Virus record (IMG/VR): IMGVR_UViG_3300045988_126989
From: a virus
Strand: one strand, 5' to 3'
DNA length: 43,134 nucleotides
Below, one piece after another: positions 19,932 to 42,989 of this stretch (positions are counted from its first letter, which is position 1; each line of letters begins with the position of its first letter). Made by a program: the position numbers and the translations under genes. The notes under the pieces were generated by a model. The model had not been told where the DNA came from, made no database searches, and saw nothing but the letters and a program-made list of their open reading frames with translations.

Positions 19932-21132
19932 TGTAACTAATACCTCCTTGATTTGATTTAGTTACCTGGATGTATTCACCTCGAATAAAACGTTTCTTAC
20001 CTTCATCATCTGGTAAAGGCGCTTTGTTCATAATATTTAATGCCCCGTTCGTATCAATCATTCCTCTATCGAACATTTGAGTCGCAACATTCAGCTTTGT
20101 CTGTGTTGAATCATACTGTAAACGATCGCTTGTAAGAATGATTTCACTACCATTCATAATCTGATTTACGGAATATAACATTCCACTCAACACTTCTCCA
20201 ACTTCAATAAAGAATGGTTCAATAATTGATTCATAAAATGCATTCCATTCATCAGGTTTATATTTATTTTGTAAAATAGCTTCACTAATTCCAAAATAGC
20301 TGTATACACTATTTTCAATGGCTTGCTTCTGCTTGGCATCCACTAACAGTGGTTTACTTTCAATCGGTTTTACTTCATCAAAACGGTTATCAATAAGAAA
20401 TACACCTGTTTCATTCTTGTTCAGGTTATTTCTTAAGATTTGGTTCTGTTGCTCTTTGTAATCCTCATCATCATCAATCGGTGTTGAAATTTTAGCTAAG
20501 AATCGAACAATTGAACTCGACTTAATCGCATTGATTGCTCCTTCTTCCTGAGCAAGCATCAATTTAGCTGTTGTATCAAATGCATCATTTACATCACCAA
20601 AGTAATCATCTTTATACTGCATTTGCCTTAGATGTCCTACTTTGCTGTATTCAATCAATTTTGTTTCGCCATAGATGAAATTAAAATAAATATAAACTGC
20701 ACCATTGATTTCTTTTAACTGACACTGACTTGGAACAGCAGGCCATAATCCTTTTATCATTCCATATTCATCTTCAATTGGAATAATGAAAGCATTGTTT
20801 TCTGCAAAATATATAGTTGCCAGCCTTTTGTAAAATTGACTAGCTGTCATATAAGGATTTGGCTTTTTCTTAACCAAATAGTTATATATCTTACTTTTGT
20901 AGTCTTTGTTTGTCAGTTCAGGTGAAGCCTTTCCACATGATGTAGCAATTCGATTGATACATGCTCTGCATAGTCCAATCTCATATATTCCACCATCATA
21001 TGATGAATACACTGGTGAATATCCACCTAAGCTTGCAAACATTGAATGTAATTGATTTTGTTTAGGTGCTGGCTTATTTAGTCCTAATAGACTTCCTAGC
21101 AAACCAAATCTTTTTCTTCTGCTTTTAGCCAC
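19849..21132 (-). CDS. Portal protein (HK97 family)
   Basis: 427 aa immediately after TerL. Typical size and order. Confidence 0.85.
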   Translation of the reverse strand: MAKSRRKRFGLLGSLLGLNKPAPKQNQLHSMFASLGGYSPVYSSYDGGIYEIGLCRACINRIATSCGKASPELTNKDYKSKIYNYLVKKKPNPYMTASQFYKRLATIYFAENNAFIIPIEDEYGMIKGLWPAVPSQCQLKEINGAVYIYFNFIYGETKLIEYSKVGHLRQMQYKDDYFGDVNDAFDTTAKLMLAQEEGAINAIKSSSIVRFLAKISTPIDDDEDYKEQQNQILRNNLNKNETGVFLIDNRFDEVKPIESKPLLVDAKQKQAIENSVYSYFGISEAILQNKYKPDEWNAFYESIIEPFFIEVGEVLSGMLYSVNQIMNGSEIILTSDRLQYDSTQTKLNVATQMFDRGMIDTNGALNIMNKAPLPDDEGKKRFIRGEYIQVTKSNQGGISYNGETEPQQNPNALNSVSDESGDGKQTD

Positions 21133-22790
21133 TAATTCACCTTCCTTTTCTTGTTTTCAAGGCGGTATTTAAATGTATCCCACCATTTTTGTCTTACTGT
21201 ATATGCATCAATAACAGATGCATATCCATCAATATGTTTTCTTGAATCAGTTTTAATCATGCGAACACGATTGTCCTCCGCAACTTTCTTTAATGCCACA
21301 CTAGACATATGTGCTTGTAAAAGTCCATTCGTTCCTGTATGAACAAATCCATCTCTTACATATCCTGTAAATTCATTAATAACCGGTGTAAGGTTAGTGC
21401 CCTGAATGACATCATCCATCTTGTATCCGTATTTCTTCATATCATCCACAAGATATTGAGCTGAATAACGGTCATATCCAACGACTACACAATAAATCTT
21501 GTATTTCTTACGCAACATTTCAAACCATTCCGTAACATCCTCATACCGTACAAAGTTTTCCCCACTTGGACTTAAATATCCCAATTGAATAAATCTTGTA
21601 TATGGTATTTTGTCTCTTTCCTCTAGCTCCTTGATTTTTAATGTTGGAAGCCAGAAATGAGTAAATATGTAGTCATGTTCTTGAATTCGTATAACTACAG
21701 ATGCGGCTGTTAAATCGGTTGTTTGTGACAAGTCAATTCCACCAACTGCATATGTATGTGCAAAATCTTCAAATCTAAGTTCTTCACCTTTAACTTTGTT
21801 AATATCTTCTGCACTAAATAATGCTTCTGTTGAATTCTGTTTGATATTCGCATATTTTGTTATGAATTCAGCCTTATATGTAGGTGAGCTATGGGCCTTT
21901 AAAATTTCATTCTGCAAATATTCATAAGAGACAGATATTCCAAGGTTTGGCATTGCCTTCCTCAATTCAATAGGATCATCCCATTTTTGAATATCATCAA
22001 TCATGTAAAAGAAAGGCAACATTTGTTTTTCATCAGACGTACCAAGTAAAACAGATGTTCCACGAACAAATAGTTCATCATATAATCCTTCATCAATATA
22101 GTTTGCGGTACTTACAGGAATATAAAGTGGATCAGGTCTTGCACCACCTGCCGACAACATAACGTTGTACATTTTCATACCCGCTTCACCTTCCCAGGCT
22201 GCAAACTCATCAAAGATTGTCAAATATGGGTTGAATCCGTCTGATTTTTTAGATGCAAAGGCAATTGGCTCCCATCTACAGTTGTTCTGTTTCATGTAGA
22301 TATCTGTTCTACGTTTTTTTACTCTTTGACTCAATGCTTTAGAGTGTTCCATCATTTGATACAGAACGTTGTAAATGATCTGCGCTTGTTTTAACTTTGG
22401 CGCTATATTGTATATCTGCATACCTGCTTCATCAGATGTAAATCCAACATCAAGTTCAATACCTGCACAAAGAAATGATTTTCCTTGTTTTCGGCCCATG
22501 ACTGTAGGTATTTCACGGAACTGCCTTTTCCCATTCTTATCAACAAGTCCGAATATGCACGCAATATAGTATTTTTGCCAAGGTTCAAGCTTTACTTTTG
22601 TTGTTTTTCCTTCTACGTGGTGACAAAACGTTTCAATAAACGCTATATGCATTTCCGCTTTTTTTTCATCATAGAAGAAATCTCCATTTGCTAAACCTCT
22701 TTCAACATATTGAAGATTAAGCTTTATCCACTTACCGACTACATCTTCACCCGATTTAATACGTTCTTTATAAATGTCTAGATATTTCAT
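21132..22790 (-). CDS. terL: Terminase large subunit
   Basis: 552 aa. Walker-A-like MGRKQGKS and DEF acidic motif (TIFDEFAAW). Terminase_1-like organisation. Confidence 0.9.
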   Translation of the reverse strand: MKYLDIYKERIKSGEDVVGKWIKLNLQYVERGLANGDFFYDEKKAEMHIAFIETFCHHVEGKTTKVKLEPWQKYYIACIFGLVDKNGKRQFREIPTVMGRKQGKSFLCAGIELDVGFTSDEAGMQIYNIAPKLKQAQIIYNVLYQMMEHSKALSQRVKKRRTDIYMKQNNCRWEPIAFASKKSDGFNPYLTIFDEFAAWEGEAGMKMYNVMLSAGGARPDPLYIPVSTANYIDEGLYDELFVRGTSVLLGTSDEKQMLPFFYMIDDIQKWDDPIELRKAMPNLGISVSYEYLQNEILKAHSSPTYKAEFITKYANIKQNSTEALFSAEDINKVKGEELRFEDFAHTYAVGGIDLSQTTDLTAASVVIRIQEHDYIFTHFWLPTLKIKELEERDKIPYTRFIQLGYLSPSGENFVRYEDVTEWFEMLRKKYKIYCVVVGYDRYSAQYLVDDMKKYGYKMDDVIQGTNLTPVINEFTGYVRDGFVHTGTNGLLQAHMSSVALKKVAEDNRVRMIKTDSRKHIDGYASVIDAYTVRQKWWDTFKYRLENKKRKVN

Positions 22791-23179
22791 TTAAATCTGC
22801 TCATGAACTCATCCAATTCATCACCTTTTTTTCCGGATACTTCTGTTGTTTTTGAAAGTGAAGTAGGTGACAAGCCAAGTTCTTTGCAGTATTTCATAAT
22901 TTGATCACGTAATTGAACGGTAATAATGTAATATGGTGAGCGTGATAAATTCGTTGCACCAGCCTTGTTCGTGTATTCAACAACCATCTGTAATGTTTTG
23001 AAACCATTTGCTTTGCTTGAATCTCTCCATTGCTTCATTGTTGAATCATATTGGGCCAAGGCATCTGCAAGTGAATCAATCGCAACCGAATATTCAGGGG
23101 AATATGTACCTAAATTTTCTAGTTGAGAATTTATTCTTTTTTTCCATGCTCCTTTTTGCATTCTTCCTCCCTTCCACAT
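22787..23179 (-). CDS. terS: Terminase small subunit (P27-family-like)
   Basis: About 125 aa. C-terminal ..CKELGLSPTSLSK.. is typical of the P27 family. Overlaps the terL start. Confidence 0.7.
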   Translation of the reverse strand: MWKGGRMQKGAWKKRINSQLENLGTYSPEYSVAIDSLADALAQYDSTMKQWRDSSKANGFKTLQMVVEYTNKAGATNLSRSPYYIITVQLRDQIMKYCKELGLSPTSLSKTTEVSGKKGDELDEFMSRFK

Positions 23180-23502
23180 CCTATAAGCATTCCATTTTCA
23201 TCAAATTCAAAAGATGGTTTGCGTTTGGAATGTTCTTCTGCATGGCATAAGTCACACAACGCTTCCAAATTAGAATCACCAAATAGAATGTGTATATCTC
23301 TATAGTTGTCCTGGTCAATGTGTACTTTGTGGTGCACACAAGTAGACCTTGTATAGATTCCTTTTTTTAAACACCTTTCACAAAGCGGATGCGCCTTTCT
23401 ATACGCTTTACTTTTCTTTTCCCAAGCCTTGCTTGAGTAGAATTTTCTAGCATAATTTCTAGCGCCCGTTTTCGTTGCTTCTGAACCATAATATTTTTTC
23501 AT
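23131..23502 (-). CDS. HNH endonuclease associated with cos-type packaging
   Basis: CERCLKKG..VHHKVHI..LCDLCHAEEH (HNH/zinc motifs). Located directly upstream of terS/terL, as in HK97-like cos phages. Confidence 0.85.
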   Translation of the reverse strand: MKKYYGSEATKTGARNYARKFYSSKAWEKKSKAYRKAHPLCERCLKKGIYTRSTCVHHKVHIDQDNYRDIHILFGDSNLEALCDLCHAEEHSKRKPSFEFDENGMLIGCGREEECKKEHGKKE

Positions 23503-23578
23503 ATCGCTACATTCAAAGTTTTAGTTAACAGATTTAAAGGACGACAATATGAACAGTAAACCCTTTGAATGCAGTGAT
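23503..23578 (-). promoter_or_regulatory. 16-bp imperfect inverted repeat abutting the HNH start codon
   Basis: ATCGCTACATTCAAAG (23503-23518) versus CTTTGAATGCAGTGAT (23563-23578), 14/16 complementary. No Shine-Dalgarno precedes the ATG at 23502. Confidence 0.45.
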
Positions 23579-23581
23579 ATG

Positions 23582-23611
23582 AAAAAGACCCGTGTTTCCA
23601 CAGGTCTTTTT
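23582..23611. terminator. Bidirectional rho-independent terminator in the late-operon leader
   Basis: AAAAA-GACCCGTG-tttc-CACAGGTC-TTTTT. 8-bp stem with one mismatch, and A/T runs on both sides. Confidence 0.6.
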
Positions 23612-23689
23612 CAAACGGGCACAATATGAAACAATCCAAGAACTACCTTGTTTGTGTTCTAGAAGATGTTTTCCAATCTTCACAACTAC

Positions 23690-23726
23690 AGAATATCACG
23701 GTTTTTCTTTGTACACTGTACAAAAT
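23690..23726 (-). promoter_or_regulatory. Putative late promoter for the packaging/head/tail operon: same 19-nt box plus -10-like hexamer
   Basis: TTTGTACACTGTACAAAAT (23708-23726) is identical to 1692-1710. After 12 nt on the minus strand comes TATTCT (23695-23690). Confidence 0.5.
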
Positions 23727-23735
23727 GAAGAAATT

Positions 23736-23837
23736 CAGATTTTACCCCCCTCTCGTGCGCGCATGACCGAGTTTTTTTAAACTCCCCACGCCGTTCCCCG
23801 AAACGCAAAAAACTTCCGAAAGATAGGGGGGTATCTG
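23736..23837. repeat. Interrupted 13-bp inverted repeat with C6/G6 runs enclosing a GC-rich 73-nt segment (cos-region or RNA-stem candidate)
   Basis: CAGAT-ttt-ACCCCCCT (23736-23751) pairs with AGGGGGGT-ATCTG (23825-23837). An internal hairpin GAGTTT-tttt-AAACTC is present. Confidence 0.5.
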
Positions 23838-24149
23838 CTGATCTGATCCCAGCCAAGGGCGCTTTCAGGGTTCAAAATTTGGATTATGCAGCTACCACCA
23901 CACCGCACCATTCACGGCTTTAATCATATGACATTCACATATTTATTATTGTGTTGAAACATTTTTCAACACGCATTGTTGAAAGCGTGTTTCATACCAT
24001 AGCCATGACTACATCAATAGAACACGCGCGCACGTTCTTATATATGCAATAACTCTTGCATCACTCCAGTGCATTGCATCATGCGCACCCGTTCCATATG
24101 TTTTTAGCGTGTCGCTTGGCTTCCTTGATGGAGCTCAAGCAAACCACAC

Positions 24150-24173
24150 AAAAAAAGGACGCTCACCACGTCC
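24150..24173 (-). terminator. Short intrinsic terminator on the minus strand
   Basis: GGACG-7nt-CGTCC followed by U7 in minus-strand RNA. The stem is only 5 bp. Confidence 0.4.
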
Positions 24174-24196
24174 ATACATGTATATAATACCGGTCT

Positions 24197-24253
24197 GATA
24201 ACTATATCTTATAAGACCAAAAGCGAACACGCTTAAAAGCCTTATAAATAGGC
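24197..24253. repeat. Copy B of a 57-bp repeated module (copy A at 29094-29150)
   Basis: GATAACTATATcTTATaAGACCAA matches copy A at 22/24. AAAAGCCTtaTAAATAGGC matches at 17/19. Same orientation. Confidence 0.7.
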
Positions 24254-24326
24254 GCTTGCGTGCACGTTTGAGAATACAAAAGCTTTTTGAAAAAATGAGC
24301 ACCGAAAAAATATTATTAATTTTTTA

Positions 24327-24354
24327 TTGACATATACATGTATATGTTTATAAT
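24327..24354 (+). promoter_or_regulatory. Consensus sigma-70-type promoter of the plus-strand island
   Basis: TTGACA (24327-32), 16 nt, TATAAT (24349-54). Confidence 0.7.
24331..24346. promoter_or_regulatory. Perfect 16-bp palindrome (operator candidate) inside the promoter spacer
   Basis: CATATACATGTATATG is its own reverse complement. It overlaps the -35 and the spacer. Confidence 0.55.
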
Positions 24355-24358
24355 GTAA

Positions 24359-24618
24359 GTGTAAGCTAAATAAAAAGCTTACACAAAACAAACGGCGCTT
24401 ACTCATAAAGCCAAGCCAAGACAACTATAAATTGATAGATTGGACTTGATAGTATGGATAAGTTTATAAGCCTATTAAATAAATTGTTGTTTAAACTTCA
24501 TATAAAAATAAGTTTAGACATAAAAAAAGGGCGCTTACTCATAGACATAAAAGTCAATGAATAGCGTCATTAAATAAGCAAATAAATTATAGCGCCGTTT
24601 GTTTAAATAGTCAAGTTT
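24359..24618 (+). promoter_or_regulatory. Structured 5' leader of the plus-strand island
   Basis: 5' hairpin GTGTAAGCT-8nt-AGCTTACAC (24359-84). 14-nt perfect long-range complement 24386-99 / 24591-604. Direct repeat GGCGCTTACTCATA at 24394 and 24530. Confidence 0.45.
24586..24614 (-). promoter_or_regulatory. Near-consensus minus-strand promoter facing the island promoter
   Basis: Minus strand reads TTGACT (24614-09), 17 nt, TATAAT (24591-86). Predicted start sites of the two promoters are about 220 nt apart, with overlapping transcripts. Confidence 0.6.
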
Positions 24619-24631
24619 AGGAGGTGTAAAC

Positions 24632-24823
24632 ATTGTAAGAAAAAAAAGTGGTTCTTTCAATCAAATAGAATACATAAAAGAATTTAATAAAGCCAATTAT
24701 AGAAAATACGAAATCAGAGTGAAAAAAGAAAATATAGACCTTATAAAATGGCTTGATAAACAACCAAATAAAACCGCTTATATAGTAGATTTGATTGAAA
24801 AAGACATGAACAAAAAAAAATAA
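24632..24823 (+). CDS. Small ribbon-helix-helix-like DNA-binding protein with a non-canonical ATT start (63 codons)
   Basis: AGGAGG (24619-24), 7 nt, ATT. Frame open to TAA 24821-23. No ATG/GTG/TTG is available upstream. ..YRKYEIRVKKENIDLIKWLDKQPNKTAYIVDLIEKDM looks like strand-helix-helix. Confidence 0.4.
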   Translation: MVRKKSGSFNQIEYIKEFNKANYRKYEIRVKKENIDLIKWLDKQPNKTAYIVDLIEKDMNKKK

Positions 24824-24909
24824 AAACGTGAACCCCTTCCAGGTCGCCAAACTCAAAAGGGATTCACACAACGGCAATTATACACAATATTCAGGAGGTT
24901 AAGCCCGTC

Positions 24910-24960
24910 TTGTATATATTGCTTTTCTATTCTACCATAGACGGGTTAAAAAGAAAATGA
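24910..24960 (+). CDS. 16-codon upstream mini-ORF, possibly coupling translation into 24957-25439
   Basis: AGGAGG (24893-98), 11 nt, TTG. MYILLFYSTIDGLKRK. Its TGA overlaps the downstream ATG (ATGA), and the downstream gene lacks its own SD. Confidence 0.25.
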   Translation: MYILLFYSTIDGLKRK

Positions 24961-25439
24961 AAGAACAAAAATACTATTATGGAAATGCTATTAGTGAATA
25001 CGGTTTAGAAAATGGACGTGTAGACTATGCCACACTTGCAAAGGCTTTCGATGCCGTATTAAACAATGACATCATGAACTTGACTTATGACATAGGTTCA
25101 TGGGAGCAAGTGAGCGGTATTATTGACAACACGGACGAGATAGAAGAACTAGAAGAAAAAAGAGACGAGTTAGAAGAAGAAAACGAAAATAACCCATCGC
25201 AAATTATTGAAAATGAAATAAATGAAATAAATGAACAAATAGAAGAACTTGAAAACGAACAAAATGAATATCAAGAAGTATTTCAATGGTTTATTGTGGA
25301 TGATTGGGGCGCTAGATTATTACAAGATATCGATGAAGTTGTTTACTACAACGAAAAACTTGATATGTATTTATGGGGCGTTACGCACTACGGTACTTCT
25401 TGGGATTATGTTCTAACAAACATTAAAATTGATTGGTAG
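24957..25439 (+). CDS. Hypothetical protein with a central acidic coiled coil (160 aa)
   Basis: YYYGNAISEYGLENGRVDYATLAKAFDAVL.. then an E/N-rich linker then ..WGVTHYGTSWDYVL. No function recognised. Confidence 0.6.
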   Translation: MKEQKYYYGNAISEYGLENGRVDYATLAKAFDAVLNNDIMNLTYDIGSWEQVSGIIDNTDEIEELEEKRDELEEENENNPSQIIENEINEINEQIEELENEQNEYQEVFQWFIVDDWGARLLQDIDEVVYYNEKLDMYLWGVTHYGTSWDYVLTNIKIDW

Positions 25440-25452
25440 GTGTAATATTCCA

Positions 25453-25602
25453 ATGTTAACACGCAAAGATCTTGACAAGATGAGCGCCGTCCAGGTGCTC
25501 ATACTTGCATTATTAAAATTCTACTTCTATATATGTTTTGACGCATTGTTGATAGGCCTATTTTTAGGCTTATCAAACATAATATTACCACTTATTTATT
25601 AA
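25453..25602 (+). CDS. Small hydrophobic protein (49 aa)
   Basis: MLTRKDLDKMSAVQVLILALLKFYFYICFDALLIGLFLGLSNIILPLIY. Fills the gap between ORFs. Weak RBS (GGTAGGTG). Below the track cutoff. Confidence 0.3.
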   Translation: MLTRKDLDKMSAVQVLILALLKFYFYICFDALLIGLFLGLSNIILPLIY

Positions 25603-25619
25603 TTGCAGGAGGCTATACA

Positions 25620-25892
25620 ATGGAACTTTTAGAAATTAAATTATTGCATAAATATGCAAGAATAAGATCATATATGAATGATCTTATTTCAGGTAATTAC
25701 ATCATTTATGATTTTCTTTATGAATGTTTGGTGGATCATATTGAATCTTTTATTTTTGATCTTGCTTATATAGAAAATGAGAAAGTCATAAATATTTATT
25801 ATGATCAACTATTAAGCGATTCTAAACAAGTAAGTAACAAACTTTATACACTTGTTATAAATATTTTTGAAGATAATGAATGGAGGTTTTAA
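25620..25892 (+). CDS. Hypothetical protein (90 aa)
   Basis: AGGAGG 7 nt upstream of the ATG. Confidence 0.55.
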   Translation: MELLEIKLLHKYARIRSYMNDLISGNYIIYDFLYECLVDHIESFIFDLAYIENEKVINIYYDQLLSDSKQVSNKLYTLVINIFEDNEWRF

Positions 25893-25894
25893 AA

Positions 25895-26125
25895 ATGAAT
25901 AACAAAGAATATATTGAATTTACAGAAAAAAAACTAGATCGACTAAATGGATCTAGCTGCAAACCTTACACAATAACCAAACATTTAAACGGTTTATATG
26001 ATCTTAATTATGGTTTAGATACAATTGTGTGGATGCTTGAACCGCGCGAACTTTGGCTATTTGTAAATACTTTGTATACGTTGGATATTTTAGGAGGTCT
26101 TAAAAATGACAATATGGAAGCGTGA
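25895..26125 (+). CDS. Hypothetical protein (76 aa)
   Basis: ATG at 25895 lies 8 nt after GGAGG and is preferred over the track start at 25880. Confidence 0.55.
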   Translation: MNNKEYIEFTEKKLDRLNGSSCKPYTITKHLNGLYDLNYGLDTIVWMLEPRELWLFVNTLYTLDILGGLKNDNMEA

Positions 26126-26687
26126 GCGAACTCACTTTAACTACTATATTACAAATGAACGGAAACAACCCCACATTTATATTGAAGCGTTAGGAACTCC
26201 AAGCGCTTCAACTGAAAAAGTTTTAAAAGATCATGGTTTTAAATTTGATCATAATAAATGCATGTATGCAGCAGCTCAAACAAATGAATTAAGGCTTTTT
26301 GTCGCTCATGATCTTGACAAGCTTTTCAACTATGATATTCAAATATATTTCAATACAGAAGCGAAAAAAGAACTTTTCGCGCCTGATATCCAAGAAATAA
26401 AAGATATCTGTTATTTCTTCAAAATTTATAAATGCTATGTTGATATTTTAAACAAGGATCTTTTTAAGATTTGTAAACCAGGTTCAAAAAGCTTGCTAGC
26501 AACTTATAACACTTATTCAAAAACTATAGATGTTTTTAATAGAAACAAATTACAAGAAAGCTATATATACAAAAATGGTAAAATCAATAAAATGAGCGTT
26601 GAAAAAGCAGCGCCAAAGAAGAAGAAAAAAACAGCACTTACAGAACAACAAAAATTAAATGAAATGCTTGAAGCATTTCCATTTTAG
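26106..26687 (+). CDS. Hypothetical protein (193 aa) with a Lys-rich C-terminal segment
   Basis: AGGAGG 8 nt upstream. ..APKKKKKTALTEQQK.. No recognised domain. Confidence 0.6.
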   Translation: MTIWKRERTHFNYYITNERKQPHIYIEALGTPSASTEKVLKDHGFKFDHNKCMYAAAQTNELRLFVAHDLDKLFNYDIQIYFNTEAKKELFAPDIQEIKDICYFFKIYKCYVDILNKDLFKICKPGSKSLLATYNTYSKTIDVFNRNKLQESYIYKNGKINKMSVEKAAPKKKKKTALTEQQKLNEMLEAFPF

Positions 26688-26699
26688 GAGGTAAAGAAA

Positions 26700-27014
26700 A
26701 TGAAAAAAACTGTTAATGACATTAAAAATTTATGTAATTTATTGCAATATATGAGCCGTGAAGCCGGCTTATTCAGCAATGGATATATTAGTTATATATC
26801 AATTGGAAGATATGCAAAGTATGTTGATTTACATTTTATAAACGGATCTATTTACAACTTTGATTCATATACAAAAGCTTTTCTATATGATCAGCTTTTA
26901 AGATATGCAAAAAACCATCTAGAAAAATGGGATCAAAAAGAAAAAAGCAAGCGCGAAAAAAATCGCTTCAATCGCGCAAAAAGAGAACTTGAAAAAATTG
27001 AAAAGGACTTGTAA
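26700..27014 (+). CDS. Hypothetical protein (104 aa), basic coiled-coil tail
   Basis: AGGAGG RBS. Last gene before the terminator. Confidence 0.6.
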   Translation: MKKTVNDIKNLCNLLQYMSREAGLFSNGYISYISIGRYAKYVDLHFINGSIYNFDSYTKAFLYDQLLRYAKNHLEKWDQKEKSKREKNRFNRAKRELEKIEKDL

Positions 27015-36443: not shown

Positions 36444-37343
36444 CTACTTTCTTTTCGCATAACTCAATGATTCAAGATTCTGCTTTTTCATTTTCCTTGT
36501 TGTACGAACATAGATTCTTGTGGTTTCTAAACTAGAATGTCCAAGAATATCAGCCAATTCAGCAATCGCATTTTCACCATTCTGCATCAAATACTGAATC
36601 GCGAACAAATGCCTAAATGCATGAGGATGTACTTTACCAAGCTTAATTCCTCTGCACTTACCAGCGATCATTTTTAGATCCCTGGATAACACACGAGCGT
36701 TTACAGGACTTTTCTTATCAGAAGAAGTAAATATATACCCTTCTTCGATTTTGTTGTCCTTGCAATATTTTAGAAGCTCTCGCCGCAAGTCTGAACGTAG
36801 AATGATTCCTCTTCCTTTTCCTTTGTTCATAACATACACATTGTCATCCGTTACTGCTTCTACAGTGAAGAACTGTAATTCACTCAATCGAATGCCCGTA
36901 TATCCAAATACCTTCATGATCTCGTATAAATCCATACGATTGATTTCACGGGCTTTTTTCAATAGCCTTTGAAATTCATTAGGTTCTAGAATATCATCCA
37001 AAGAATCGTCTTTCTGGACTCTTACGTTCTTCAATAAGTTCTTTGAATAATATTTCTTTAGCTTAAGAAAATTAAAATCATCATCAGAATCAATGATTTC
37101 GCTATATTTAATAAATTTATTAATGATCACAATATAGTTGTTTACTGTACTGATTTTATAATCATGCAGCAGTTTATCTTTAACACCAACTATATCGGAC
37201 TTTTGTATTTCACCATCAGGCAATGAGTTAACAAACAAGATAGTTACATGTTTGTATTTACGAATGGTATTCTTACTTTTCTCATCCGCTGTTTCTTCTT
37301 CTATGAACCCGTCAATCTTTGTTTGTAACTCATCCTTAGTCAT
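36444..37343 (-). CDS. Second tyrosine recombinase (XerC/D-like, 299 aa)
   Basis: ..GIRLSEL.., ..HPHAFRHLFA.., ..LGHSSLETTRIYV.. (the R...HxxR...Y catalytic pattern). Confidence 0.85.
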   Translation of the reverse strand: MTKDELQTKIDGFIEEETADEKSKNTIRKYKHVTILFVNSLPDGEIQKSDIVGVKDKLLHDYKISTVNNYIVIINKFIKYSEIIDSDDDFNFLKLKKYYSKNLLKNVRVQKDDSLDDILEPNEFQRLLKKAREINRMDLYEIMKVFGYTGIRLSELQFFTVEAVTDDNVYVMNKGKGRGIILRSDLRRELLKYCKDNKIEEGYIFTSSDKKSPVNARVLSRDLKMIAGKCRGIKLGKVHPHAFRHLFAIQYLMQNGENAIAELADILGHSSLETTRIYVRTTRKMKKQNLESLSYAKRK

Positions 37344-38620: not shown

Positions 38621-38710
38621 GTATGTTACACATACATTATAAGTATGTGTTGCATACTATGTCAACTTTAAATTATTCAAATAATTTGTTTTTTTGTATA
38701 CTCGGCATAC
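38621..38710. promoter_or_regulatory. Three 15-bp operators GTATG-N5-CATAC of the immunity switch
   Basis: O1 38621-35 GTATGttacaCATAC. O2 38643-57 GTATGtgttgCATAC. O3 38696-38710 GTATActcggCATAC. Confidence 0.65.
38636..38665 (-). promoter_or_regulatory. Early lytic promoter (PR-like)
   Basis: Minus strand reads TTGACA (38665-60), 18 nt, TATAAT (38641-36). Operators lie in the spacer and just downstream. Confidence 0.7.
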
Positions 38711-38755
38711 TTTTTAATGTATAATCACAGTGTAAGCAGTTAAGAGGTGAAAATC

Positions 38756-39160
38756 GTGGAAGAACATATAGGGTCGAGAATATATAAAATACGTAAACAT
38801 TTTAATTTGAGTATGGAAAAATTCGGTAAACAAATAGGTATCTCAAAAGGTTCAATCAATAACATTGAAAAAGGAACTACCAATCCATCAAGCCAAACCA
38901 TCAATTCTATATGTCGAGAATTTAACGTTGACTATGTATGGTTAACTGAAGGTATTGGAGACGATATGTTCATTTCTATACCTGATTCAAAAATAGATCA
39001 GCTAATCGAAGATTATGGATTAAAGCCAGAAGATAAATGGCTTGTGCGAGGATACCTTGAAGCACCGCCGGATATAAAGCAACAAGTTGCAGATTATTTG
39101 TGGTCAATTGTAAATAGAGAATTAGCTAAAAGAGAAAAAGAAAAGAGTAACAAGAAATAA
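38756..39160 (+). CDS. CI-like repressor (XRE-family HTH, no S24 peptidase domain)
   Basis: GTG 38756 lies 8 nt after AAGAGG. ..LSMEKFGKQIGISKGSINNIEKGTTNPSSQTINSICREF.. Divergent from the early promoter. Confidence 0.8.
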   Translation: MEEHIGSRIYKIRKHFNLSMEKFGKQIGISKGSINNIEKGTTNPSSQTINSICREFNVDYVWLTEGIGDDMFISIPDSKIDQLIEDYGLKPEDKWLVRGYLEAPPDIKQQVADYLWSIVNRELAKREKEKSNKK

Positions 39161-41891: not shown

Positions 41892-42989
41892 TTACAACAA
41901 CTTATTCATCATATCTACAATGCTCTTGTCTTTTGTATCAAACCAGTGTGCATATGTATTGTGCAATGTTTCAACTGTATCTCCTAAGCGCTTGGCTATA
42001 TCAAAATCTGAAAATCCAGCACCTGCCATGTTATTAATTAGAAATGATGCGTGTGAATGTCTAAAATCATGGATTCTTATTTTAGGCAATCCATCATCTT
42101 TTTCTTTTGCCTTATTATATGCATCATCAAATCTTCTTTGCACTGTCTGAGGTGATATTGGTTTATAGTATCCAAATACAAATTTATCTTTTGTAAAATC
42201 ATCCCATTTAGAACATTCTAGAAACCATTCTCGAAGCATTTTAGACAATGTATTAGGCATTGTAATAGTTCTATAGCTATTGTTTGTTTTTGGCGGTGTA
42301 AGCCATTTATTAGGGTCTTTCTCTTTGTATCTATATGTTTTGTTGATGTCTATCGTTTGCTTCCTAAAATCAATGTCTTTCCATTGTAGGGCCATTGCTT
42401 CACCTTTTCGCAATCCCATATAGAATAAAACAGAATAAAAACATTTCATCATTTGTTCATTTACTTCTTCAATAAACAAATCAAAATCATATTGCTGCCA
42501 TATTGTCATTTCTTCTTTTCTTTCATTCAATCTAAGATCACGTTTTACATATGTCATTGGATTGGTTGGAATGTATTCAGAAGTAACACCAAATTTATAT
42601 AGCTTATTTAAAAAGAAATAGATTCTTGATACATATGCCTTTGAATATTTTTCATCAAATTTGTTGATCAAGTTTTGCATTTGCCTTTTATCTAGAAAAT
42701 CAATATCTTTCATTTCCTTAGAAAGGACATTGTACAAATATTCATCTGATTTTAGTGTTGATTCTTTTACATACTTTTTATTATATTCTTTAAAAGCTTT
42801 ATATAGTCTGTCAAAATTCATGTCTGATGGAAGCATAAAGAAATCTTTCCTGAATTCAACCTCAGCTTTTTGTGCTTCCCATTTAGAATCAAAACCACGC
42901 TTACGATATCGCTTTATACATTTACCATCTTTATATATTTTTCCGGCAAACATATATTTTCCTGTCTTCTTATCTAATTCCACTGCCAT
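41892..42989 (-). CDS. int: Tyrosine integrase with an N-terminal arm-binding-like domain
   Basis: 365 aa. ..LRKGEAMAL.., ..IRIHDFRHSHASFL.., ..GDTVETLHNTYAHW.. Adjacent to the terminal repeat. AAGAGGG RBS. Confidence 0.9.
   Translation of the reverse strand: MAVELDKKTGKYMFAGKIYKDGKCIKRYRKRGFDSKWEAQKAEVEFRKDFFMLPSDMNFDRLYKAFKEYNKKYVKESTLKSDEYLYNVLSKEMKDIDFLDKRQMQNLINKFDEKYSKAYVSRIYFFLNKLYKFGVTSEYIPTNPMTYVKRDLRLNERKEEMTIWQQYDFDLFIEEVNEQMMKCFYSVLFYMGLRKGEAMALQWKDIDFRKQTIDINKTYRYKEKDPNKWLTPPKTNNSYRTITMPNTLSKMLREWFLECSKWDDFTKDKFVFGYYKPISPQTVQRRFDDAYNKAKEKDDGLPKIRIHDFRHSHASFLINNMAGAGFSDFDIAKRLGDTVETLHNTYAHWFDTKDKSIVDMMNKLL

Follow-up and report, generated by a model that had tools for sequence, protein, structure and literature searches.

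What is controlled where two promoters point at each other across some 220 nt of phage DNA? The question is raised by virus record IMGVR_UViG_3300045988_126989 of IMG/VR (43,134 nucleotides; the whole stretch is called the window below), a complete genome or prophage of temperate, siphovirus-like type. A sequence-only reading of this locus had described a rightward promoter, P(+), and a leftward promoter, P(-), as a convergent switch that decides between the late genes to the left and an island of unknown genes to the right. Our analysis points instead to a compact control module, probably made up of a self-repressed promoter, a folded leader encoding a very small protein and a short antisense RNA, and not to a switch between two gene sets. 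The module lies within a 1.1-kb gap between an HNH gene and the rightward block of unknown genes at 24632–27014.

Searches with a 63-amino-acid (63-aa) protein of the module and with DNA patterns yielded more than 40 related loci (L numbers below). The majority represent one gut phage family, with 96–99% identity in HNH and 93–99% in the small terminase subunit (TerS). The same layout is also carried by a distant Faecalicoccus prophage family (L063) and by one chromosomal-looking contig (L056). The features of the module in the window are these (ORF, open reading frame; SD, Shine–Dalgarno sequence; RBS, ribosome-binding site; MFE, minimum free energy; sRNA, small RNA):

24150..24173, minus strand: intrinsic terminator GGACGUGGUGAGCGUCC plus U7, which would halt leftward transcription before the late region
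24327..24354, plus strand: P(+), TTGACA-16-TATAAT, a 12/12 match, with an A/T-rich tract before it
24331..24346, in the P(+) spacer: operator candidate, the perfect 16-bp palindrome CATATACATGTATATG
24359..24384, plus strand: hairpin at the 5' end of the P(+) transcript (GUGUAAGC...GCUUACAC)
24386..24399, plus strand: 5' arm of a long-range helix, AAACAAACGGCGCU, pairing with 24591–24604
24403..24457, plus strand: RBS-masking helix, 24403–24419 with the SD region and AUG of the small ORF (24440–24457), in the MFE and centroid structures
24454..24564, plus strand: small ORF with ATG start, 36 aa, MDKFISLLNKLLFKLHIKISLDIKKGRLLIDIKVNE, basic and amphipathic
24488..24520, plus strand: hairpin inside the small ORF
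24522..24543, plus strand: second copy of a 22-nt direct repeat (first copy 24386–24407), complementary to the antisense RNA's 3' half
24522..24579, minus strand: predicted ~58-nt cis-antisense sRNA with a 13-nt 5' tail, a hairpin (24566–24532), CCC and U7 (24528–24522)
24591..24604, plus strand: 3' arm of the long-range helix, AGCGCCGUUUGUUU, U-rich after a GC core and inside the P(-) spacer
24614–24586, minus strand: P(-), TTGACT-17-TATAAT, an 11/12 match
24620..24823, plus strand: SD GGAGGUG (24620–26) and the gene of the 63-aa basic DNA-binding candidate, ATT start at 24632, stop at 24821–23

P(+) and the perfect 16-bp palindrome in its spacer were found where they had been reported. The -35 element, the 16-bp spacing and the -10 element are unchanged in 26 of 26 unique family leaders and also in L031, L063 and L056. 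The palindrome itself occurs in seven classes (for example CATATACATGTATATG, CATATAGTCATATATG and CATAGTTATAACTATG), which pair one-to-one with seven classes of residues 22–34 of the 63-aa protein in 32 of 32 loci, among them:

CATAT[AG]CATG[CT]ATATG with YRKYE[IF]R[VI][KR]K
CATATAGT[CT]ATATATG with YKRYIVQIRN
ACATTACACATATAATGT with YKRYIFQVRK
ACATTATCTGTATAATGT with YKRFELRIRL
CATAGTTATAACTATG and TACGGTTATAACTGTA with YKRVTVLVP
TCATGAAGATTATTATTCATAA-type with FNVAITIRK

This pairing persists even where the leader allele between operator and gene was swapped. The seven-class co-variation is the strongest functional evidence in the comparison and supports the earlier proposal that the palindrome is an operator for a small downstream protein. 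Because operator classes match the classes of the predicted DNA-reading beta-strand, the 63-aa protein is a candidate autorepressor, and the co-variation supports its action at its own promoter. In more distant homologues of the protein no leader intervenes between the gene and a strong promoter that has a palindrome of its own. This arrangement suggests an ancestral repressor–operator pair into which leader, small ORF and sRNA were inserted.

An AlphaFold2 (AF2) model of the monomer (predicted local distance difference test score, pLDDT, 82.6) comprises a helix at residues 11–22, an extended segment at 23–34 and helices at 35–42 and 47–62. The protein had been called ribbon-helix-helix (RHH)-like, a description that our searches do not bear out. 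Pfam returned no hit even at E = 10, NCBIfam none, and PHROGs and PADLOC nothing informative; a family profile run against PDB sequences and a Foldseek search of the AF2 model against the PDB gave no match; and hhalign against Arc and CopG sequences returned a probability of 0.2%. An RHH fold is plausible insofar as the model, apart from its additional N-terminal helix, is compatible with it. In about 30 of 32 related loci the start codon of the gene is ATT or, in L027, L041, L042 and L096, ATA. An ATG start was found only in the distant L031, L063 and L056 versions, and ATG is also the aligned codon in P0035.

Several minor observations concern the same protein and palindrome. The ATT start overlaps a TTG–TAA start–stop pair (24633–38). 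In L048/L049 (1450–1700), a distant homologue with 36% identity lies behind three copies of the palindrome ACATGCGCACATGT, which fits a family of operator-binding autoregulators. The palindrome core ATACATGTAT has only two exact copies in the window. The second exact copy of ATACATGTATAT, at 24174–24185, abuts the conserved minus-strand terminator and is kept in nearly all loci. We considered this copy as a second operator of the 63-aa protein and rejected it, since it stays constant while the promoter operator class switches. The main CI-like repressor was likewise rejected as the palindrome binder, because no further copy lies near the immunity region at 38.6–39.2 kb.

Between operator and 63-aa gene the leader is highly variable. 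Promoter and 5' hairpin, and SD and start of the 63-aa gene, are near-constant within the gut phage family, and the intervening ~200 nt form discrete, largely non-alignable alleles (A, A2, B, B2, B3). Further alleles were found in the Faecalicoccus prophage family (C) and in the chromosomal-looking contig (D). The plus-strand RNA at 24361–24640 folds far better than its shuffles (z = -6.3), and across alleles the leader folding z ranges from -5.5 to -8.4, with a set of six alleles at -5.8 to -8.4. The 5' hairpin at 24359–84, already noted before, is present and covaries (GUAAGC/GCUUAC; GUAAGG/CCUUAC in L031; GUAAGGC-GAAA-GCCUUAC in L056). Likewise present is the 14-nt perfect complement between 24386–99 and 24591–604, whose arms lie ~190 nt apart and close a fold of ~200 nt. 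This helix occurs in five non-identical sequence versions across alleles, all of them complementary:

AAACAAACGGCGCU / AGCGCCGUUUGUUU
AAAAGCGGUGCU / AGCACCGCUUUU
AAAGACACGG / CCGUGUCUUU
GGGAGA.CGAUG / CAUCG.UCUCCC
AGGUCUUUGAAGUAG / CUAUUUCAAGACCU

Compensatory change thus shows a maintained RNA helix. Changes from GC to GU on the plus strand were seen in 5 of 15 type-A sequences. In the predicted folds the start codon of the small ORF is paired in every allele, via different sequences, and in type B the hairpin that masks it carries a compensatory change. The hairpin at 24488–24520 shows AU-to-GC double compensatory changes in 5 sequences, with codons synonymous or conservative; one of its pairs, a U-G on the plus strand, is invariant. 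The direct repeat described at 24394 and 24530 exists and is larger than had been stated, spanning 22 nt with 20/22 identity (24386–24407 and 24522–24543). It is confined to leader type A; other alleles repeat 8–12 nt of the SD region of the small ORF. The window contains 7 copies of GGCGCTT, where 1.2 would be expected. At the gathering threshold, Rfam gave 0 hits in the whole window, and a permissive Rfam search (E up to 5) of 23400–25000 gave sub-threshold chance hits only. As a side observation, four plus-strand GGCGCTT copies (23858, 24251, 24394 and 24530) fall within 680 bp, and RNA pairing in leader type A accounts only for those at 24394 and 24530.

Inside the long-range helix lies a feature that the sequence-only reading had not listed, the 36-codon ORF at 24454–24564. 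It is open in every allele, at 32–41 codons and with an SD-like sequence, and an ORF of the observed length arises in 1–8% of shuffles per allele. Among the variable codons of type A, 11 carry synonymous changes only, and in 6 a conservative replacement of the residue occurs. The peptides of B, B2 and B3, each 40 aa long, align without gaps at 30–63% identity. Public gene calls of the ORF include eleven variants, one with an in-frame 7-codon deletion, and a homologue search with the 40-aa type-B peptides matched the same phage group only. A motif, I-K-I-S-L-(D/T)-x-K-K-(G/A)-R-L, is common to the phage and chromosomal peptides. Taken together, these signatures indicate that the small ORF is coding. 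Its peptides range from -0.2 to 0.75 in grand average of hydropathy (GRAVY) and from +2.5 to +6.5 in net charge, and they gave no informative hit in Pfam, PHROGs, NCBIfam or PADLOC.

How far does the module extend to the right? In the Faecalicoccus prophage family (L063) a canonical terminator, GGCUGAUCACUGAAUCAGUC plus U7, directly follows the 63-aa stop, and the next gene is convergent. In L056 (200–2200) three tandem copies of the whole module, each ~735 bp, stand without the island beside ordinary cellular genes (nucleoside hydrolase, membrane protein). Small ORFs, promoters and sRNA terminators are intact in 3 of 3 copies, the 63-aa gene is decayed in 2 of 3, and the sRNA hairpins differ between copies by compensatory changes. 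On the strength of this terminator and this triplication, the module appears to be a self-contained unit. Both observations also speak against the proposed choice between island and late genes, since one unit ends behind the 63-aa gene and the other exists in triplicate without the island.

The best-placed alternative is that the leader acts as an attenuator for the island and that the small ORF is merely a regulatory upstream ORF with a functionless peptide, as in pIP501 repR or pCF10 Anti-Q/IRS1. We consider this unlikely. In the window's family the accessory genes (p160 and others) do follow with no terminator or promoter detected between; a U-rich run follows the GC core of the 3' arm in 5 of 5 helix versions, as in an attenuator; and duplicated 5'-arm cores (GGCGCU twice; GACACGG twice) would permit alternative pairings. 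A functionless peptide is, however, hard to square with a peptide conserved in sequence and not just in length, with the excess of synonymous over non-synonymous changes in type A, and with the motif that links phage and chromosomal versions. The module also stands alone in L063, with its terminator after the 63-aa gene, and in L056. A terminator stem with arms ~190 nt apart would be unusual. The long-range helix with its U-rich run is the sole candidate for an attenuating terminator; the terminator scan called none on the plus strand.

P(-) was confirmed at 24614–24586, and the two convergent promoters are conserved. A P(-) of 10–11/12 with a 17–18-bp spacer is found in seven leader alleles of otherwise different sequence; an equally good match arises in 0–3.4% of shuffles per allele. 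Over about four independent allele groups, the shuffle frequencies for P(-) and for the ORF length rule out chance. Thirteen nucleotides after the predicted P(-) start begins a 13-bp bulged hairpin with the shape of an intrinsic terminator, absent from the earlier description, and the sRNA predicted to end there folds with z = -3.95. The design of tail, hairpin and U5–8 recurs in all alleles, with predicted sRNAs of 53–61 nt, and the terminator scan itself called the homologous sRNA hairpins of L056 as terminators. Over its whole length the predicted sRNA is complementary to the small ORF's final 14 codons and the 15 nt beyond them. An extra complementarity of 8–14 nt is directed at the RBS of the small ORF in types A2, B2 and C, or at the anti-RBS in type A.

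The P(-) transcript had been expected to run antisense through P(+) for about 220 nt and on toward the late genes. The hairpin and U5–8 run at 53–61 nt past the P(-) start in all alleles speak against this, and the predicted transcript overlap is mostly ~58 nt, not 220 nt. Further left, a terminator at 24173–24150 had been described as weak. The site is there, and the adjective does not fit a conserved, GC-rich hairpin (24173–24157) with U7–8 and compensatory stem variants (GGACGTT/AACGTCC and GGACGG/CCGTCC). Because the sRNA terminator and the hairpins at 24173–24157 and 23613–23580 intervene, an antisense transcript that reaches the late genes is unlikely, and no gene lies downstream of P(-) ahead of these three terminator-like hairpins.

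These data leave a bistable convergent switch, with a long P(-) transcript reading through P(+) into the late operon, very improbable. Its appeal rests on promoters that face each other with predicted starts ~218 nt apart, on a late operon that runs leftward on the same strand as P(-), and on the precedents of pCF10 and coliphage 186. It would have to pass the conserved hairpin and U-run 53–61 nt past P(-) in all alleles, then the conserved terminator at 24173–24150 and the terminator-like hairpin at 23613–23580 before HNH, and the module in L056 has no late genes downstream of P(-) at all. Least probable of all are chance promoter look-alikes beside a DNA-level element (a hotspot of cassette-exchange recombination or a packaging site) without antisense RNA: promoter-like hexamers are indeed no commoner than in shuffles, a GC-rich block that is possibly cos lies ~0.5 kb away and leader alleles are swapped between otherwise near-identical phages, but P(-), hairpin with U-run and ORF recur in alleles of unrelated sequence and in a non-phage context, and G-U substitutions and compensatory pairs indicate RNA, not DNA.

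Several points weigh against the control module as we read it. Near-consensus promoters are common in the AT-rich DNA of the window: matches of at least 11/12 number 6 against a mean of 4.2 in dinucleotide shuffles, which is no enrichment, and 22–27 kb holds 22 promoter-like sites against 22.3 expected. The promoters remain unproven on sequence alone, and it is conservation across related loci that makes the case. The minus strand of the leader folds equally well, and with z below -4.6 on both strands, folding energy was rejected as a means of choosing the transcribed strand. One common variant of the long-range helix is a G-U pair on the minus strand only. The RHH fold is without support from Pfam, PDB, Foldseek or hhalign. 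The peptides have no hydrophobic run of ~18 residues (transmembrane length), unlike most type I toxins. Because the secondary target of the sRNA differs between alleles, the direction of its effect on translation is ambiguous. Finally, no terminator was detected behind the 63-aa gene in the window's own family; co-transcription of the island is therefore possible there, and the island is perhaps the true target of control.

With these points in mind, the control module could work as follows; we infer both transcripts, repressor binding, the sRNA effect and the activity of the peptide from sequence. P(+), a strong housekeeping-type promoter, would fire rightward without phage factors. The 63-aa protein, weakly translated from ATT, would accumulate, bind the spacer site and close its own promoter. 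The first ~270 nt of the transcript would form the 5' hairpin and then the long-range helix around several hairpins, with the RBS of the 36-aa protein hidden. P(-), within the 3' arm of that helix, would fire leftward and give rise to the ~58-nt antisense RNA that stops at its own terminator, and pairing over the 58-nt overlap would block or destroy the P(+) transcript. In Bacillota the likely route would be double-strand cleavage that detaches the protective 5' hairpin from the remainder; a translation block, or termination (attenuation) at the U-rich 3' arm, would be alternative outcomes. Derepressed transcription from P(+) would dampen P(-), and repression of P(+) would relieve that interference.

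Because a triple lock of repressor, masked start and antisense RNA surrounds it, the small protein is the most likely payload. We favour an element of type I toxin–antitoxin-like or secondary-immunity-like character with its own repressor. Our more specific and more tentative proposal is an autonomous three-component element for secondary immunity or addiction, consisting of a masked small protein, a terminator-ended sRNA and a dedicated repressor with its operator inside the promoter. If so, new arrivals would be silenced in trans, through RNA as well as protein, wherever a copy of their own type is already resident, and lost control would release a harmful small effector. In gut Erysipelotrichaceae phages the element would sit beside what is presumed to be the end of the genome; elsewhere it would form tandem arrays in chromosomes. 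Its evolution would proceed by swapping two independent layers, with at least 7 operator/reader classes and at least 7 leader/sRNA alleles. By analogy with P1/P7 c4, independent diversification of both specificity layers suggests selection against cross-silencing between related phages or elements.

Known systems share much of this design. Type I toxin–antitoxin families such as bsrG/SR4, txpA/RatA, par Fst RNA I/II, hok/sok and aapA1/isoA1 combine an ORF of <60 aa, a masked RBS and a 5'–3' long-range helix with tandem copies and prophage location. Their short cis-antisense RNA covers the 3' part of the ORF, with extra short complementarity near the start. The module resembles them in its conserved 32–41-codon ORF with signs of coding selection, in an SD and start codon paired in silico in every allele within a fold that includes a covariation-supported helix, and in its tandem copies and occurrence in prophages. 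A conserved promoter and terminator predict that a 53–61-nt cis-antisense RNA over the 3' part of the small ORF would be formed as well. It departs from them in its amphipathic, basic peptides, which lack the membrane helix of a hydrophobic toxin, and in an mRNA that continues into a dedicated repressor gene. We know of no co-encoded repressor in type I systems.

Plasmid copy control offers a second comparison. In pIP501, repression of the sense promoter by CopR also relieves interference on the antisense promoter (PMC4981023). As with CopR and RNAIII on the repR leader of pIP501 and the inc18 plasmids, the module has a candidate small repressor at a strong sense promoter, a long leader (329 bp in pIP501) with a convergent antisense promoter inside, and Bacillota hosts. 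CopR differs in being a helix-turn-helix (HTH) protein encoded upstream from its own promoter. RNAIII is longer, at 136 nt; the pIP501 leader contains no peptide, its target is a replication initiator and attenuation occurs at a local terminator.

The comparison with prgQ/prgX of the enterococcal plasmid pCF10, drawn earlier, is apt in layout, with convergent promoters and a small ORF in the leader. There, promoters converge over 223 nt and transcriptional interference is documented (PMC3181467). The module shares the small ORF in the sense leader (prgQ in pCF10), and its candidate repressor and predicted antisense RNA would correspond to the repressor at the pCF10 sense promoter and to Anti-Q, a small antisense RNA that acts on the nascent leader. 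In pCF10, however, the repressor PrgX is a further product of the antisense promoter; here the repressor candidate is encoded by the sense transcript. From prgQ comes a secreted signal peptide, in contrast to the basic peptide here, which has no signal sequence. Anti-Q arises by processing of a longer RNA, and the predicted sRNA here ends at its own terminator. Coliphage 186 pR/pL, the other system invoked earlier, likewise has convergent promoters in a temperate phage and interference as a regulatory principle. Both of its promoters drive protein-coding operons (lytic and lysogenic), whereas P(-) apparently yields a short RNA only. The alternative programme that marks the 186 and pCF10 switches is missing here, with no P(-) gene before the three terminator-like hairpins.

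The immI region of phage P22 offers a further parallel. There, the Arc operator lies between the -35 and -10 elements of the strong promoter Pant, Arc is a small repressor made from the Pant transcript, and sar is transcribed from a convergent promoter inside the operon. The module parallels this with its candidate spacer operator, its repressor candidate on the same transcript and its convergent antisense promoter. P22 sar is an antisense RNA of 68–69 nt that blocks ant translation, and differences in c4 cause P1/P7 heteroimmunity (PMC12197685). The allelic specificity of the module parallels this c4 heteroimmunity. In contrast to P22 and P1, we identified no antirepressor, and the gene order is small ORF first, then repressor. 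No sequence similarity to Arc was found, and the hosts here are Gram-positive gut bacteria.

Among catalogued toxin and RNA families we found no match to the module. Judged by these searches, the module is previously undescribed and matches no catalogued family; the regulatory principle itself is known. If our reading is correct, it would be a Gram-positive gut-phage case of layered control by protein and antisense RNA, a design so far known mainly from plasmid copy control and the P22/P1 immunity regions. It would also add a new small-protein family, an sRNA and a repressor family, none of them in Pfam, NCBIfam, PADLOC or Rfam. The swapped alleles amount to a natural specificity experiment, with seven repressor/operator pairs and at least 7 sRNA/target pairs in a nearly constant background. 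Orthogonal repressor–operator pairs, all in one consensus promoter, are potentially useful as genetic parts.

The wider genome is organised as follows:

266–1333: endolysin
minus strand: late genes, with portal, the large terminase subunit TerL (21132–22790), TerS and HNH (23131–23502)
38.5 to 27.0 kb, minus strand: early genes
38747–39160: CI-like HTH gene
41892–42989: integrase

The nearest known TerL proteins, from Butyrivibrio phages, Clostridioides phages and human-gut contigs, are <50% identical. A blastn search of 23500–24900 against 50,697 phage records gave no match, and a tRNA/tmRNA scan found nothing. A scan of genome contigs matched a single species representative, an Erysipelotrichaceae bacterium.

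To the right of the module, the junction at 24824–24960 after the 63-aa gene is conserved regardless of the next gene and leads into variable accessory genes. It contains two hairpins (24828–38/24857–67 and 24901–10/24939–47), a strong SD (24893–98) and a 16-codon mini-ORF that starts with TTG and ends in a TGA overlapping the ATG of a 160-aa gene (ATGA). In L012 and L026 the mini-ORF is fused in frame to the next gene. The 160-aa protein (24957–25439) has a net charge of -31, an isoelectric point of 4.05 and an acidic coiled coil in its centre. Public metagenomes contain 3545 clusters of its homologues and Pfam has no family for it; the protein is a candidate DNA mimic or anti-restriction protein; its AF2 model (pLDDT 55) was too poor for a fold search. 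Five island proteins gave no informative hit in Pfam, PHROGs, NCBIfam or PADLOC. A hydrophobic 57-aa protein (25429–25602, GRAVY 1.21) is encoded in essentially every related locus, and among the island genes only the 57-aa and 63-aa genes are near-universal there.

Elsewhere in the window, a second 12/12 consensus promoter (TTGACA-18-TATAAT, 38636–38665, minus strand) has its back to the CI-like HTH gene, probably as the early lytic promoter, and the early region contains a second tyrosine-recombinase gene (36444–37343). To the left of the module, between it and HNH, the block at 23740–24100 is GC-rich in an AT-rich genome, with G/C runs and repeats of CGTGCGCGCATG-like sequences. It is a candidate cos or packaging site; if it is cos, one end of the virion DNA would carry the module. 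A 24-nt, 92%-complementary inverted repeat (23495–518/23563–86) includes the HNH start codon (23502), and the terminator-like hairpin at 23580–23613 lies just upstream of HNH; this region may be a control point for late-gene expression.

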